From IMG/VR virus record IMGVR_UViG_3300034069_000822: a DNA stretch of 64,000 nucleotides; one strand, written 5' to 3'. A program made the translations under genes and the position numbers. Source of the DNA: a virus. The notes beneath the pieces were generated by a model. The model was not told where the DNA came from. It saw nothing but the letters and a program-made list of their open reading frames with translations, and did no database searches. Positions 2,886 to 55,984 of this stretch are shown one piece after another (within the stretch, counting starts at the first letter, position 1; each line of letters opens with the position of its first letter).

Positions 2886-3907
2886 CGACGCAACCACGCC
2901 AGATAGTCCGCGCCCTGCTCCACATCGGCGAAGCATTGGACCTTCCCTGTCTGCGGAAACACGACTGACAACACCGCCGCGCCGCGATTGGACTGGGCAT
3001 AGCCATTCACGAGGGCATGGCGATCGCCCATCTTGTAGCCCGATATCTGAGCCAGCCACGCGTTCGACTTCTTTTCAGGAAACTCGATATCGAATAGCCC
3101 GAACGAATGGATATGGCCGGTAACGAAAAGTGCCGCGTCCTGGCCGAACTTGGCATCTCTCAGCGTGCCATGGGTCGGATTGTAGATCGATGAGCCCTTA
3201 CGGCCGTGGGCGGCATCGACACGCGTTTCCGACCCGTTCTTGTGGCAAAGTGTGAACTGTGCCCGCCAATCGATCACGGGGATCTGCGAAGCGCCGAGAA
3301 GCTTGTAGAACTCGGTGCCACCGTTCCATTCGTCGTGATTACCGCCGAGCCAGAGAAGCCATTTGATCCCGGCTTCCATCATGAACCAAGTCGCTAGACG
3401 CCGCTCGGTCTTGGATGAAATGTCGGCCTCGGCCCATAGCCGCGCCAACCTCCCGGTCCATGGCCAATTGTCTGAGGTGTCACCTATGTTCCCGCCATAG
3501 ACGCCGGGATGTCTGGCGATGGCGATATGGCTTTCTAGCGTCTTCCAGTCACAATGGACGCCGAGATGAGGATCGCCGAACCAGAGAATTCCGTAGGGCT
3601 TCTCATCCTTGATCTTGATCGGGAACCAAGATCGAGCCTCGATTGCCTTCTGCTTGCGGTCGTGGGCTTTGCGAAATCGATCGAGGATGTCGTCAATCGG
3701 TTCTTCTTCATCGCCGTGGACGAAAGCGGGGAACTCCACCGCTTCATCCTTTTCGACGTGGATGCTACGGCGTTCCGCAGCCGCAAACTGACTTTTTAAT
3801 GTTGATGCTGGTAGCCCTAAAGCCTTTGCAGCGGCCGCCTTTGATCCGTGTTCCTGTACTGCACAGAGCACGGCTCGCAGTTGTGCCTCATCGGTTGATA
3901 CGACCAT
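2882..3907 (-). CDS. Calcineurin-like metallophosphoesterase with N-terminal Fis-like HTH
   Basis: GDPHLG, GDTSDN, GGNHD, AAHG, GHIH motifs; GSKAAAAKALGLPASTL HTH. Confidence 0.85.
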   Translation of the reverse strand: MVVSTDEAQLRAVLCAVQEHGSKAAAAKALGLPASTLKSQFAAAERRSIHVEKDEAVEFPAFVHGDEEEPIDDILDRFRKAHDRKQKAIEARSWFPIKIKDEKPYGILWFGDPHLGVHCDWKTLESHIAIARHPGVYGGNIGDTSDNWPWTGRLARLWAEADISSKTERRLATWFMMEAGIKWLLWLGGNHDEWNGGTEFYKLLGASQIPVIDWRAQFTLCHKNGSETRVDAAHGRKGSSIYNPTHGTLRDAKFGQDAALFVTGHIHSFGLFDIEFPEKKSNAWLAQISGYKMGDRHALVNGYAQSNRGAAVLSVVFPQTGKVQCFADVEQGADYLAWLRR

Positions 3908-6254: not shown

Positions 6255-6555
6255 TTGACTTTTCCAGTTCGGAGAGTTTTTGGGATTGATCTTCGACCGA
6301 CGCACCGATGTTGCGCATTTCTTGGACCAGCGAGGAGACAAGGCGGCTATCTAGCCGCGCCTGTTCCTGCAGAGCGTCGATAGTGCTGTTTGCGGCCTTG
6401 TTGGCATCGACGGCCACGGACAGCTGTTTCTGCGCGTCCCTGGCCTCGGCGGAGGCGCTTATGGCCTGCCCGCGATACCAGAGCGCCGTCGCGATAAGTC
6501 CGGCGAGCAAGACAGCGATTACCAGCGCTGCATAGAGCTTGGCTTGGGTGAACAT
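6187..6555 (-). CDS. i-spanin (Rz-like), 122 aa
   Basis: N-terminal TM, long coiled coil, C-terminal FLNRPVPSDL; follows the endolysin. Confidence 0.8.
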   Translation of the reverse strand: MFTQAKLYAALVIAVLLAGLIATALWYRGQAISASAEARDAQKQLSVAVDANKAANSTIDALQEQARLDSRLVSSLVQEMRNIGASVEDQSQKLSELEKSNEVVRDFLNRPVPSDLGKLYQH

Positions 6556-7067
6556 CACAGCCCCGCCAGGCACAGTTCGAGTTCGCCAAGGCGACTTGCG
6601 TCGCCAAACTGCCGACGGTTCTTCAACCCCTGTATCTCTTTGCCATTCGCTTTATCGAACCAGGTCATCGCGTAGCAGGAGCCGGTGTAATCACCGACAC
6701 GGGCGCGCTTCGCCGCGGTCGAATTGCAAACTGCCCCGACGCCCACGTTGTAGGAAAGGTCGAGCGTAGCGGCCTGCCAACTCAGTGGTTTGCCGTCGAA
6801 CCCTTTGATGCAGCGGGTGAGCGGCTGGTGAAAATCGACCTCGAGGCGGCGATACAGCATGGCGCTGCACTGCTGGTCGGACATCACCATGTCGGGCTTC
6901 ACGCCCTTGGTTTCGCCCGTGCAGATCGTCCACACCTTACCCAGCCTATCCCAATAGGCGCGGTTTACCGTCCCCTCCCAAGGCTGCGTCAAATAGGTCG
7001 CAGTCATCGCGACAAGGCCAAGACCGGAGGCGAGCGCCGCTTTTGCGCGCTTACTCATTGTCGTCAT
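6555..7067 (-). CDS. SAR endolysin, GH24 (T4/P21-like) lysozyme
   Basis: Ala/Gly-rich SAR helix; E-x8-D-x5-T triad (WEGTVNRAYWDRLGKVWTIC); GLKNRR. Confidence 0.9.
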   Translation of the reverse strand: MTTMSKRAKAALASGLGLVAMTATYLTQPWEGTVNRAYWDRLGKVWTICTGETKGVKPDMVMSDQQCSAMLYRRLEVDFHQPLTRCIKGFDGKPLSWQAATLDLSYNVGVGAVCNSTAAKRARVGDYTGSCYAMTWFDKANGKEIQGLKNRRQFGDASRLGELELCLAGL

Positions 7068-7281
7068 CCTTCAGGTTGGATTGGTCGATGATGCGGACCA
7101 CCGGAACGGCAACAGCTAGAACGCCGTTGAGTGCAGCGAGCCACATCGGGGCGACTGGCAATGATCCGGTGATGATGGAGACGGTCACGGCAGCGCCGTT
7201 GAGTATAGCGGCCAAAAGCGCCAGACGGACGGTCCATGCATAGCGCAGGACCGCTCGCCAGTTCGTAACGAGACGAGGCAC
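7051..7281 (-). CDS. Putative holin/pinholin, 2 TM
   Basis: NWRAVLRYAWTVRL start, two TM helices, position upstream of the SAR endolysin. Confidence 0.7.
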   Translation of the reverse strand: MPRLVTNWRAVLRYAWTVRLALLAAILNGAAVTVSIITGSLPVAPMWLAALNGVLAVAVPVVRIIDQSNLKDDDNE

Positions 7282-7319
7282 GGTCTTTCCTTTCCGGCGT
7301 TATTCGATTAGTTTCCCGG

Positions 7320-7506
7320 CATCTCACCGAAATGAGGTGGGATGGGGCGTGAGAACCCCTCCAAGCGACGCTCTCCGGCACAGGCTGGGGAGCGTTTCAT
7401 ACCCTCCCGATTACCGTTCGGGTCGGGGAGGCATACGCGTATGTCCAGGGCGAAAGTCTAAAGGCGTATGCGGTCGTCGCTTGGCGGCTTCTCAACTCCC
7501 CGATCC
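7320..7506 (+). ncRNA. Candidate structured RNA (multibranch junction)
   Basis: Long-range pairs 7361-7370/7475-7484 (10 bp), 7350-55/7489-94 and 7340-47/7498-7506 enclose three hairpins; GAAA loop. Confidence 0.5.
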
Positions 7507-7524
7507 AGATTTGGGGAGATGGGT

Positions 7525-7785
7525 ATGTTCGAAAACCTCTATGAACTTTCCTGCCAGTGGCTGGACCATTGGCAGCTAACGCATCCGAAGCACTGGTGGA
7601 CGTGGTGGCGGACCGACCCTTTCGAGTGGTCGCCCTATATGCCGTTCGGACGAAAAATCCGCGATGAAGCTGGCAACCTGATCGAAGGCAACTGCATGAG
7701 GCGGTTTCGTGATGGCTCTTGGACCTACCGGCCGTTTACCGAAAAAGAATCAGCTGACGACGACATGTGGCACGGGGTCCGCTGA
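7525..7785 (+). CDS. Trp-rich hypothetical protein, 86 aa (moron)
   Basis: GGAG 6 nt upstream of ATG 7525; opposite to the late operon. Confidence 0.6.
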   Translation: MFENLYELSCQWLDHWQLTHPKHWWTWWRTDPFEWSPYMPFGRKIRDEAGNLIEGNCMRRFRDGSWTYRPFTEKESADDDMWHGVR

Positions 7786-7947
7786 CGCCGGATCGTCTCC
7801 CCCTGCTATGCAGATCGCGCCGAAGCGGGTGGTTATGAGTTCCAGATATTAAGCCGGGTCAACGAAAGTACATCTCCGCTGGAATTGCCCAATGGCGATG
7901 TTCCCATCTACTTTGTCGCTAGGGCAAAAAAACAATGGGACTGGGGA

Positions 7948-8469
7948 ATGAAAAAAACCATTGCATGCGTCGTCGCCATAACGCTCACATTCTTGTTGTC
8001 GCCTGTGGCGGCAGATGAGTTTCGCGGTGCTCTGGTTCACAAGAATACCGATGCCGAGCAGATCGTTCCGAATAGCTATTCGCACGCACAGTGGGTGCAG
8101 GTTGAATTTCCTGAGGTCGAATACGACACGAGCGGCTTATGGGACGCGGCAAACCATCAATTCGTAATTCCTGACGGCGTACATTTTGTTCGTCTCTCAG
8201 GACAAATAGTATGGGACCACGACGCTAAGGGCTCGCGGCAGACACTCATTACCAAAAACAATGCCCTTTTCGACGGTTATGCCGCCCAGAACGGGCGAGC
8301 AACTTTTGGTACCACTCCCGATCAAAACGTAGCGACAGCCGTCATTCCGGTAAAAGCAGGAGACACGTTTCAGTTGCAGGCGTGGCATATACGCCAAAAA
8401 CCAACAGGTGCGCCAACTAAGATTTACGGAAATCACGGAACGTGGTTTTCCATAGAAGTAATTGATTGA
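7948..8469 (+). CDS. Secreted C1q/TNF-like jelly-roll protein (moron), 173 aa
   Basis: Signal peptide MKKTIAC...PVAA; WDAANHQFVIPDG..VRLSGQIVW, IPVKAGDTFQLQAWH. Confidence 0.7.
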   Translation: MKKTIACVVAITLTFLLSPVAADEFRGALVHKNTDAEQIVPNSYSHAQWVQVEFPEVEYDTSGLWDAANHQFVIPDGVHFVRLSGQIVWDHDAKGSRQTLITKNNALFDGYAAQNGRATFGTTPDQNVATAVIPVKAGDTFQLQAWHIRQKPTGAPTKIYGNHGTWFSIEVID

Positions 8470-8478
8470 TGACAAGAG

Positions 8479-8506
8479 GCGACCTACGGGCGTCCCAGTA
8501 GGTCGC
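8479..8506. terminator. Hairpin between convergent genes, probable terminator
   Basis: GCGACCTAC/GTAGGTCGC 9-bp stem; no U tract. Confidence 0.5.
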
Positions 8507-8582: not shown

Positions 8583-9380
8583 CTACGCAAGAACAAGCTG
8601 CAGAGCAGCCTTGATCGAAGCGCACTGAATGTCGTCCCCCGCCATGCTCAGATGCATACCGTCGATATGATTGGCATCGGCTAAGTTCCCCGAATTATCC
8701 ACCAGTTGAGCCTTCGGACGCGCGAACTCCACGCGGGCCGTGCTGCTTGCCCAAGCTAAGCGGATGCGCGCGTTCACAGCATCGACCTGGGCATTGAACC
8801 CGGCGTAATTGGAGCTGACATTGGCAACCAACACCGGCTCATTGACCGGCAAGATTTCGCGGATCACCCATTTGCCAGTGGCCTGAGCCGCAACGCACTG
8901 ATGCATGACGGCGATGTTGTTCAGCTTCGCTTCAAGCGGGTAGGCGTTGTAATAAGCGAAATTCGCCAGTTCATTCACGCCTGATGCCAGCACGACAGCC
9001 CCGGCCCTGTGGATCAGGCCGCCCCTGGAAAGCCGGTTCAGGCATCTGCGAAGGCTCTCACCACCAACGCCGAAGCCCTCGACAAATGGCCCAATCTTCC
9101 ACGTCACCATGTCCTGCACGATGGAATCGCCCAAGACCATGATCGTGCCATTGAGGCAATGCGCCATCTTCCGATCATAATAGCCCAGATCCACCGCCGT
9201 GGGGACGGTGTCATTTGACGTATATCCGAGCGGATAAGGGAGGAGCGCCGTAGGCCACACACCGCCGAGACAATCAACCCCGGTTGGCATGGTGTAGGTC
9301 GACAGGCCGCCGCCGGGAATATTATCGAAAGCAGTAGCGATCGAGCGGAAGGTATCTCCAAGGGAGGTCATGCATTCCAT
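8583..9380 (-). CDS. SGNH/GDSL hydrolase, tail-associated
   Basis: Blocks GDSI, G, GVNE, DGMH. Confidence 0.85.
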   Translation of the reverse strand: MECMTSLGDTFRSIATAFDNIPGGGLSTYTMPTGVDCLGGVWPTALLPYPLGYTSNDTVPTAVDLGYYDRKMAHCLNGTIMVLGDSIVQDMVTWKIGPFVEGFGVGGESLRRCLNRLSRGGLIHRAGAVVLASGVNELANFAYYNAYPLEAKLNNIAVMHQCVAAQATGKWVIREILPVNEPVLVANVSSNYAGFNAQVDAVNARIRLAWASSTARVEFARPKAQLVDNSGNLADANHIDGMHLSMAGDDIQCASIKAALQLVLA

Positions 9381-37406: not shown

Positions 37407-37483
37407 TGGCGCACATGTCTGGACTCGAACCAGAAACCTACCGATTAGAAGTCGGTCGCTCTATCCTGTTGAGCTACTTGTGC
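37407..37483 (-). tRNA. tRNA-Arg(UCU), CCA encoded
   Basis: Cloverleaf: D stem GCTC/GAGC, anticodon stem ACCGA-CTTCTAA-TCGGT, T arm TCTGG-TTCGAGT-CCAGA; one A-A mismatch in the acceptor stem. Confidence 0.93.
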
Positions 37484-55360: not shown

Positions 55361-55984
55361 ATGACCACTTGGCTTACCGATGCACGAGGCAACCGCTGTT
55401 CCGTTGAATACTGGGGCAGCGAGGAAGAAGCGCAGAAGGCGCTCGACAGCCTCAAGAACTGTGACAATTGCACCAACTGCTCGGACTGCTCGGACTGCTC
55501 GCGCTGCTCGGGCTGCTCGGACTGCTCGGACTGCTCGGGCTGCTCGGGCTGCTCGGACTGCTCGCGCTGCTCGGGCTGCTCGGGCTGCTCGGACTGCTCG
55601 GATGTTGCCTATGTCTGGGACAAGAAGGGCCTCAAGGGCGATCCTGACAAAGCGACCGCAACCCTTGGCCAGCCGACAATCCCTGTCATCGCGGATATCC
55701 ATCAGAAAGTATTCGAGGCGGCATCTCAGCCCGGCGCACTCAATATGAACGACTGGCACACCTGCGGCACGACGCATTGCCGCGCTGGTTGGGTCGTGCA
55801 TCTCGCAGGCGAGGCCGGATATGCGCTGGAGCGATTTCACAACACCGCGCTAGCGGCCCAACTGATCTACCGGGAAAGCGGACACCCGATCAATCCAGGC
55901 AAGTTCTACGTCAAGAATGACGAAGCGCTTGCTGACATGAAGCGCCTTGCGGAGGTCGCCCCCGCGACTGGCGGTGGCACATGA
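55361..55984 (+). CDS. Protein with a Cys-x-x tripeptide repeat tract (16 Cys) and C-terminal HTCGTTHCRAGW domain
   Basis: Repeat CS[DGR] x14 preceded by CDN CTN. Confidence 0.8.
   Translation: MTTWLTDARGNRCSVEYWGSEEEAQKALDSLKNCDNCTNCSDCSDCSRCSGCSDCSDCSGCSGCSDCSRCSGCSGCSDCSDVAYVWDKKGLKGDPDKATATLGQPTIPVIADIHQKVFEAASQPGALNMNDWHTCGTTHCRAGWVVHLAGEAGYALERFHNTALAAQLIYRESGHPINPGKFYVKNDEALADMKRLAEVAPATGGGT
55478..55603 (+). repeat. 9-bp tandem repeat x14 (TGCTCG + GAC/GGC/CGC/GAT)
   Basis: Counted directly. Confidence 0.95.

Follow-up and report, generated by a model that had tools for sequence, protein, structure and literature searches.

A widespread structured RNA of Alphaproteobacteria and their mobile elements, with two competing covarying helices and a putative role as a bistable leader

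The DNA analyzed here is a stretch of 64,000 nucleotides from a virus (IMG/VR record IMGVR_UViG_3300034069_000822; hereafter the window, to whose full length all coordinates refer), and its subject is an RNA element of about 190 bases encoded on the plus strand at 7320–7506. On one side of the element lies a divergent lysis cassette, in which Pfam identifies a Phage_lysozyme gene (6555–7067, minus strand) and a gene for a DUF7940 membrane protein (7051–7281, minus strand). On the other side is a plus-strand open reading frame (ORF) for an 86-residue Trp-rich protein (7525–7785, with an alternative ATG at 7519), hereafter the cargo ORF, whose product has no Pfam match and no assigned function; its one homologue cluster (92% identity) is a ‘hypothetical protein’ of Rhizobiales bacterium 3FA27D7. 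A putative weak σ70-type promoter (7286–7314, plus strand), composed of TTTCCT (7286–7291), a 17-nt spacer, and TAGTTT (7309–7314), precedes the element, and a Shine–Dalgarno (SD) region on the plus strand (UUGGGGAG, 7511–7518; core GGGGAG, 7513–7518) separates it from the cargo ORF. Contigs L195–L199, which encode the homologue of the cargo protein, match the window at 89% identity over 7279–7821 only, the match ending at the start of the holin, and the flanks are unrelated, with a Muramidase (PF11860) in these contigs and Phage_lysozyme plus DUF7940 in the window. The RNA is therefore part not of the lysis genes but of a 543-bp mobile cassette, or ‘moron’ (7279–7821, plus strand), made up of the promoter, the leader RNA, the 86-residue ORF, and ~36 nt of 3′ flank.

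The structure of the window copy is far beyond chance. The minimum free energy (MFE) fold of the plus strand is a multibranch architecture of −98.5 kcal/mol, whereas 200 dinucleotide shuffles averaged −69.9 ± 4.8 kcal/mol (z = −5.95) with none as good, and the minus strand folds less well (z = −3.83). Briefly, a 5′-terminal hairpin (P0, 7320–7344), which folds in the MFE structure and has a counterpart family-wide, directly abuts the closing helix P1, whose 5′ strand (7344–7355; GGGG C GU GAGAA) pairs with 7489–7501. The 3′ strand of P1 continues into a tail (7489–7505; UUCUC A AC U CCCC GAUC), and the pairing includes GGGG (7344–7347) with CCCC (7498–7501) and TGAGAA (7350–7355) with TTCTCA (7489–7494). 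P2 is formed by the strands 7358–7370 and 7475–7487, which contain the long-range pair of CCAAGCGACG (7361–7370) with CGTCGCTTGG (7475–7484), and encloses three hairpins, all on the plus strand: P3 (GCUCUCCGGC-ACAG-GCUGGGGAGC, 7370–7394), P4 (7403–7431; A strand, 7403–7411; B strand, GGUCGGGGAG(G), 7421–7431), and P5 (7431–7471), in which a variable stem leads through a conserved internal loop (UAUGUCCA/CUAAAGG) to a tip capped by GAAA. P1 ends on its 3′ side in a C-rich strand, CUCCCCGAUC (7496–7505, plus strand), denoted A′ or the anti-SD strand, whose possible partners are the P1 5′ strand, the B strand, and the SD region. The long-range pair, both of its outward extensions, the 5′ hairpin, and the three enclosed hairpins had been described in an initial annotation of this DNA, and all were recovered in place. 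It had also pointed to a palindrome, CATACGCGTATG at 7432–7443, which is present in the window but is not a family feature, being a by-product of the P5 stem sequence of this copy abutting the conserved internal loop. No tRNA or tmRNA was found at the element with ARAGORN and the Rfam models, no Rfam family reached its threshold there, a consensus scan of the window copy detected neither promoter nor terminator, with no U tract, and a blastn search of 6500–8500 against a phage collection gave no match.

The element is a copy of a widespread conserved RNA family that is absent from the Rfam catalogue. The first relative was a partial match in Shinella plasmids, obtained in a plasmid search, in which the flanking strands GGGGCGUGAGAAC and UUCUCAACUCCCCGAUC are kept and the long-range stem differs in sequence, still being complementary. 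Scans of IMG/VR with each of the conserved blocks (15–16 nt) yielded five further copies holding both blocks, the matches to a single block being mostly due to chance. A scan of one genome per species with a two-block pattern, which required exact B and A′ blocks, gave 69 matches, nearly all from Alphaproteobacteria and spread over many orders, with two or three in some genomes; one match (L193, Thermoanaerobaculia) is a chance occurrence of the pattern inside a gene, which the covariance model did not pick up. Because the invariance of B and A′ is partly built into an exact-block scan, a search was carried out with R2, a covariance model of the junction fold built for this purpose. R2 detects one copy in the window (7342–7513, 117.7 bits) and 1, 3, 4, 5, and 6 copies in five genomes searched with it. 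Among 151 genomes sampled evenly across the class Alphaproteobacteria, 26 contain 1–7 copies each at E ≤ 1e-4, and many of these positive genomes are small (the 26 include an unpublished genome, G045, that is used in no other result; without it, the tally is 25/150). In total, more than 120 copies were gathered from alphaproteobacterial genomes, prophages, and plasmids, and 40 model-found copies were fetched and aligned to R2 as an unbiased set. No earlier account of the long form came up in a literature search, although this does not prove that none exists.

RNAalifold applied to 68 copies gave the same architecture as the single-sequence fold, with a variable P0, an irregular P1, a P2 of ~10 bp, and a junction bearing P3, P4, and P5; the consensus P4 includes the B strand, GGUCGGGGAGG. 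On the core alignment, RNAalifold missed P2 through misalignment, and the structure was assembled from per-sequence folds. In the 68-copy alignment, standard pairs occupy 91.0% of the cells, as compared with 39–51% when the 3′ partners are slid by 1–3 columns, double-sided changes are found in 444 cells (67–141 when slid), and the observed pairing values are reached by 0/500 shuffles. The model-found copies behave likewise, with 93.7% of the cells paired in the junction fold (40–50% when slid), double-sided changes at 41 of the 49 pairs, and a covariation score of 0.591 versus at most 0.093. The initial annotation had proposed a folding z-score against dinucleotide shuffles and a covariation analysis as checks on its prediction; the former gave the value of −5.95 reported above, and in the latter the junction fold covaries among homologues far above the slid controls.

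Each of the helices contributes to this signal. P1 is irregular, composed of GGGG, a C·U mismatch, GU/AC, a bulged A, and GAGAA/UUCUC, and shows double-sided changes at 6/7 inner pairs in the model-found copies, where GAGAA/UUCUC alternates with AAGAA/UUCUU, CAGAA/UUCUG, GAUAA/UUAUC, CGAAA/UUUCG, and other versions; in the closely matching contig L195, GGAAA/UUUCC replaces GAGAA/UUCUC by a double compensatory change. The sequence of P2 differs in almost every copy with its complementarity kept, each position displaying 4–6 pair types. P4 is paired in 93.8% of the cells, with many changes from C–G to U–G, and P5 in 97%, with double-sided changes at all 8 outer pairs. The tip of P5 is mostly GAAA across the family, and its internal loop is conserved even though it lies outside every search pattern. 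Two short forms from Rhizobiales (L148 and L164) contain only the 3′ half of the element.

At the P3 site, two subtypes are distinguished. In the majority subtype, the P3 loop pairs with the linker preceding P4 to form an H-type pseudoknot, which is found in 61/61 copies of this type with at least 4 contiguous pairs each, averages 5.4 bp (3.59 ± 0.11 in shuffled sequences), and occurs in at least 6 different complementary sequence versions. The minority subtype, comprising the window copy and those in L018, L020, L136, L147, and L195, has one long hairpin (7370–7394 in the window) as a substitute for the pseudoknot module.

Within the paired columns, G·U cells (348) greatly exceed A·C cells (78), and therefore only the plus strand folds, which is the sense strand of the downstream gene. 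The spacing between the conserved blocks falls into all three frames across the copies (29/28/16), and thus the conservation is not protein-coding. A coding reading had been considered for the ORF at 7337–7579, which crosses the element and yields conserved-looking peptides; it is ruled out by this non-frame-preserving spacing, and the top ‘protein clusters’ near the element are translations of the RNA itself.

A default consensus covariance model (R1), which was not used for searching, selected a different fold of only 27 pairs, in which the B strand pairs with A′, and the B:A′ helix was therefore tested. This 10-bp helix (7421–7430/7496–7505 in the window) has 94.0% of its cells paired, as compared with 31–59% in slid controls, 28 double-sided cells (1–8 when slid), and a covariation score of 0.232 (at most 0.082 when slid), all counted in an alignment that was not fitted to it. 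The pair formed by B3 with A′ is U–A in 31 copies and C–G in 10, and that formed by B9 is A–U in 35 and U–A in 14. When B carries GGGGUG in place of GGGGAG, its partner in P4 is CACCUC in place of CUCCUC, and A′ is CACCCC in place of CUCCCC; the nucleotide of A′ that changes with B is the unpaired C·U mismatch of P1. Moreover, GGUC of B covaries with the tail GAUC, a segment left unpaired in the junction fold. The B strand thus covaries with two mutually exclusive partners, the P4 A strand and A′, both evolutionarily maintained, and this pattern of substitutions argues for a bistable RNA. For the window copy including the SD region, the nearest-neighbor model places three states within 1.5 kcal/mol, namely A′:SD (−107.3 kcal/mol), B:A′ (−106.6 kcal/mol), and fully closed P1 (−105.8 kcal/mol); the SD region is paired in the model MFE, with a probability of being unpaired of 0.01–0.23.

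The family occupies a defined place between a promoter and an SD region or terminator. Upstream, a σ70-type promoter with a score of at least 10 is present in 48/113 copies, as compared with 11.3 ± 3.3 for shuffled sequences, and in 41 of these 48 the −10 element ends 25–32 nt before P1; because of this fixed distance, the predicted start site is located at the base of P0. The −10 element in the window ends 29 nt before P1, the modal position of the family. The 30 nt preceding P1 fold with a mean of −11.1 kcal/mol versus −5.9 kcal/mol when shuffled (Wilcoxon P = 5e-20, n = 111), and the sequence of the P0 hairpin is variable. Downstream, 23/58 unbiased copies have a canonical intrinsic terminator, the 5′ arm of which begins at the GAUC tail. 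In these terminator-type copies, ~20–35 nt separate the U tract from the SD and start codon of the gene behind it, leaving no room for another promoter, and hence read-through is the only way in which that gene can be expressed. The GC-rich copies, including that of the window, have no terminator, and the start codon lies 13–25 nt past the element. In the window, the leader segment CUCCCCGA (7496–7503) is complementary to the SD region at 7511–7518. Across the family, the SD regions behind the element show a mean complementarity of 5.4 nt to CUCCCCGA, compared with 4.1 nt for other genes in the same loci, and a complementarity of at least 6 nt is seen for 43% of the former and 10% of the latter (Mann–Whitney P = 1e-14).

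The genes with which the RNA travels are diverse. The 84 cargo proteins analyzed include 47 different Pfam families, most of the proteins matching none; the families comprise OMP β-barrels, autotransporters, BamE-like lipoproteins, and XRE regulators, and also MCP, DNA methylase, AntA antirepressor, and nucleases. A signal peptide, lipobox, or membrane segment was assigned by simple heuristics to ~42 of 68 cargo genes. No functionally coherent regulon emerged from the 84 proteins, no protein family recurs beside the element across loci, and neither does a transposase or integrase.

Several observations concern individual cargo genes. Small cargo proteins of ~80–95 residues with the motif K-x-x-H/Y-x-P-T/S-x-x-E/D-L form a recurrent family in several genomes (L207, L224, L227, L229, L235, L240, L242, and L245). 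A 68-residue cargo protein from a Shinella metagenome-assembled genome (L183:1392–1595) has the C-terminal motif DGxW.YR.P...E in common with the Trp-rich protein of the window; its gene adjoins a lysozyme-type gene, as does the cargo gene of L147, suggesting that one cassette type is present in related prophages. In the window, the cargo ORF is followed on its own strand by a 194-residue ORF with no Pfam family (7885–8469), which lies beyond the conserved cassette end at 7821 and may represent a further moron gene acquired independently.

On balance, we consider it probable, by a modest measure, that the element is a bistable leader RNA acting in cis on the cargo gene, which it gates via the A′ anti-SD strand, and via the terminator in its relatives. 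Transcription from the promoter would start at ~7320 and give a leader that forms the 5′ end of its own small transcription unit. The RNA would fold P0 and then the long P1/P2 closing helix around the three-arm junction of P3, P4, and P5. The gate would be A′, with three mutually exclusive partners: pairing with the P1 5′ strand would give the closed junction, pairing with the B strand in P4 would give a fold similar to that of the small RNA sRNA-Xcc1, and pairing with the SD region of the cargo gene would mask it. Whichever partner prevails would decide whether the ribosome-binding site is free or, in the terminator-bearing relatives, whether the GAUC-starting terminator forms, and it is in this manner that the alternative pairings are presumed to regulate expression. 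Such a leader agrees in part with the initial annotation, which had suggested an uncharacterized non-coding RNA or a riboswitch-like leader: the RNA covaries, is read from the plus strand, belongs to no Rfam family at threshold, lies between a promoter and the SD region of the Trp-rich ORF, and can form alternative pairings of the kind that is typical of switches. The word riboswitch itself is used for the element hypothetically. It seems rather unlikely that the junction and the pseudoknot constitute a new riboswitch class, which would sense a global signal such as a second messenger or an alarmone and gate horizontally acquired surface and accessory genes in Alphaproteobacteria as well as in their phages and plasmids.

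Several points weigh against the gating leader. The invariance of B and A′ among the 68 copies is in part an ascertainment bias of the exact-block pattern, and the unbiased alignment was itself fitted to the junction model. The promoter match in the window is weak and was missed by the consensus scan. A C-rich strand is expected to show some complementarity to any SD sequence, and the tracking of A′ variants by the SD is weak and suggestive only (8/12 versus 9/77), with paralogues as a confounding factor. The nearest-neighbor energies ignore the pseudoknot, tertiary contacts, and co-transcriptional folding. Finally, cargo genes without a common function are unusual for a metabolite riboswitch, and would fit a constitutive role equally well.

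If the gating leader is correct, an RNA found in about 1 in 6 sampled alphaproteobacterial genomes, often in multiple copies and on prophages and plasmids, and yet absent from Rfam, would provide a possible general explanation for the expression of ‘moron’ genes and other accessory genes, namely that they carry their own expression control. Should a ligand or protein partner exist, it would define a new cell-surface circuit in Rhizobiales, Caulobacterales, Rhodobacterales, and small-genome relatives, and the portable promoter–leader unit could serve as a compact expression part.

The most serious alternative is a trans-acting small RNA like sRNA-Xcc1 (RF02221), an 88-nt RNA of Xanthomonas campestris detected by Northern blotting and RACE (PMC2996969). 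The RNA or its processed 3′ half would then be the product, the ORF being merely read through, and the C-rich anti-SD strands (CUCCUC and CUCCCC) would pair with the ribosome-binding sites of other mRNAs. sRNA-Xcc1 is the sole Rfam model that responds to the family, always at the 3′ half and in 15 copies (18.9–43.8 bits; the best relatives score 43.8, 42.7, 38.6, 37.8, 37.1, and 36.8 bits), all below the gathering score of 53, the window copy reaching 18.9 bits (E = 5). The conserved B:A′ fold, the short forms limited to the 3′ half (L148 and L164, which themselves give no match to the sRNA-Xcc1 model at E ≤ 1), and the canonical terminator in 23/58 copies, which would release a discrete RNA, are also in line with such a product. 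However, the window and most GC-rich copies have an SD within 13–25 nt and no terminator, the ORFs of the terminator-type copies lack room for a promoter, so that leader and ORF form one unit, and the anti-SD strands are located in helices rather than in loops. We therefore regard a trans-acting product as unlikely.

Less likely still is a constitutive module for processing or stability, without sensing, which would provide horizontally acquired genes with a defined, stable, and translatable leader, either as a shield of the 5′ end or as a 5′ structure to be cut by RNase III on the ~22-bp P1/P2 helix, by RNase E or P, or by self-cleavage. The position at the very 5′ end of the predicted transcript with a terminal hairpin, the long irregular closing helix, the complex junction-plus-pseudoknot core, and the unrelated cargo genes on mobile elements, as expected for a generic portable leader, are all consistent with it. 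Nevertheless, such a module leaves unexplained both the covarying, mutually exclusive B:A′ helix and the terminator between leader and ORF in many copies, and no known ribozyme family matched the window or the related loci in the Rfam searches. Separately, the Hammerhead type II model gives a match below its threshold (28 bits; gathering score, 37) at L227:980–1077 (minus strand), between a leader–cargo unit and a 16S rRNA gene.

A DNA-level element, that is, a miniature transposable element with inverted ends or an attC-like recombination site, is highly improbable. The P1 strands do resemble imperfect terminal inverted repeats, the family has multiple copies and resides on mobile DNA, and sRNA-Xcc1 occurs in integron cassettes. 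Against these, the internal helices differ wholly between copies and yet remain complementary, the excess of G·U over A·C indicates that one strand folds, the promoter and the SD or terminator are held in fixed register, and the moving unit is the whole 543-bp cassette and not the 160-nt element; miniature inverted-repeat transposable elements, repetitive extragenic palindromic sequences, and integron attC sites are likewise at odds with the covarying helices, the one-strand folding, and the lack of a recurrent recombinase, transposase, or integrase nearby. The lysis-timing element also proposed in the initial annotation is just as implausible, because, even though 39 nt separate the RNA from the first gene start in the opposite-strand DUF7940/lysozyme operon, homology of the related contigs stops at the holin start with a different, unrelated endolysin beyond it, a lysis gene is present at only 3 loci family-wide among otherwise diverse cargo, and the folded strand is opposite to that of the holin.

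Other features of the window and of the related contigs were recorded on the way. In the window, an inverted repeat with 48-nt arms that are 90% complementary and 67 nt apart (8512–8559/8627–8674) lies at the convergent junction following the plus-strand unit; it overlaps the 3′ end of a GDSL-like ORF (8583–9380, minus strand), with MHLSMAG encoded on both strands, and may function as a bidirectional terminator or be left over from an invertible segment. At 55450–55628, the 9-nt unit CTGCTCGGR is repeated in tandem about 20 times, probably as a tripeptide repeat within a gene. A tRNA-Arg (TCT) at 37407–37483 (minus strand), the only Rfam or ARAGORN match in the window, may be carried by the prophage or mark an attachment site. 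Among the contigs, L130 has a long near-perfect palindrome after its cargo gene (1840–1934), which is hit by many unrelated microRNA models on both strands and probably represents a REP-like hairpin or a terminator. In L052 (IMG/VR 2724679360_000010), the 15-nt 3′ block recurs at 3388, 5681, and 7943 with ~2.3-kb spacing; the model finds no leader there, and the block probably belongs to a repeated gene, not to a leader RNA. The contig of the short form L148 has an ar14 small RNA match next to a tRNA gene (3269–3380, minus strand; 52.4 bits; gathering score, 58.8), and ar14 bears CCUCCUCCC anti-SD motifs, as does the leader.

Among known systems, riboswitches such as the c-di-GMP classes share with the family a covarying, aptamer-like multi-helix domain with a pseudoknot in the 5′ untranslated region, a closing helix whose 3′ strand also takes part in a terminator or in anti-SD pairing, as mutually exclusive expression-platform pairings, the occurrence of both platform types in one family, and multiple copies per genome before surface or accessory genes, also in phages. 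In contrast to riboswitches, the most conserved nucleotides of the family are found inside helices and not in junction loops, and the cargo has no theme; the associated genes give no hint of a ligand, and no riboswitch class in Rfam shows sequence or model similarity.

A second comparison is offered by the immI leader of phages P1 and P7, represented by C4 antisense RNA (RF01695) and c4-a1b1 (RF03163), together with the related IsrK (RF01394). There, as here, short C-rich segments of the leader show complementarity to the ribosome-binding region of a co-transcribed downstream gene, target-like copies upstream are able to mask them, and the leader is prophage-borne, with occasional antirepressor or XRE cargo in the present family. 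The immI leader differs in that the family folds into a junction with a pseudoknot and mostly precedes genes other than immunity genes. None of the three models matched 6500–8500 or 33 related loci at E ≤ 10, or any part of the window at its gathering score, and the leader–SD complementarity therefore indicates a c4-like working principle and not membership in the c4 family.

The closest correspondence is with sRNA-Xcc1, the whole model of which aligns to the B strand, P5, the A′ strand, and the CACC tail of the element, at the same place. Its outer stem, GGCCGGGGG/CCCCCGGCC, corresponds to the covarying 10-bp B:A′ helix and encloses two hairpins, the first being P5 and the second being replaced in the family by the P2 3′ strand. 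sRNA-Xcc1 ends in a U-tract terminator, whereas the window copy has no U tract and only a part of its relatives (23/58) have a terminator. Both are carried on mobile DNA, immediately 5′ of a gene that is read in the same direction, sRNA-Xcc1 being annotated before symE in Xanthomonas integron cassettes and before an ORF6N gene in APSE phages, and also in Xylella islands. The family is about twice as long as sRNA-Xcc1, the 5′ extension consisting of P0, the 5′ strands of P1 and P2, the P3 or pseudoknot module, and the A strand, and this extension is able to capture the two strands of the Xcc1-like stem, so as to form a four-way junction. sRNA-Xcc1 has been described as trans-acting, whereas the layout of the family points to cis action. 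Altogether, the element looks like a long, bistable elaboration of the sRNA-Xcc1 core, and would link this poorly understood RNA to a concrete cis-regulatory architecture.

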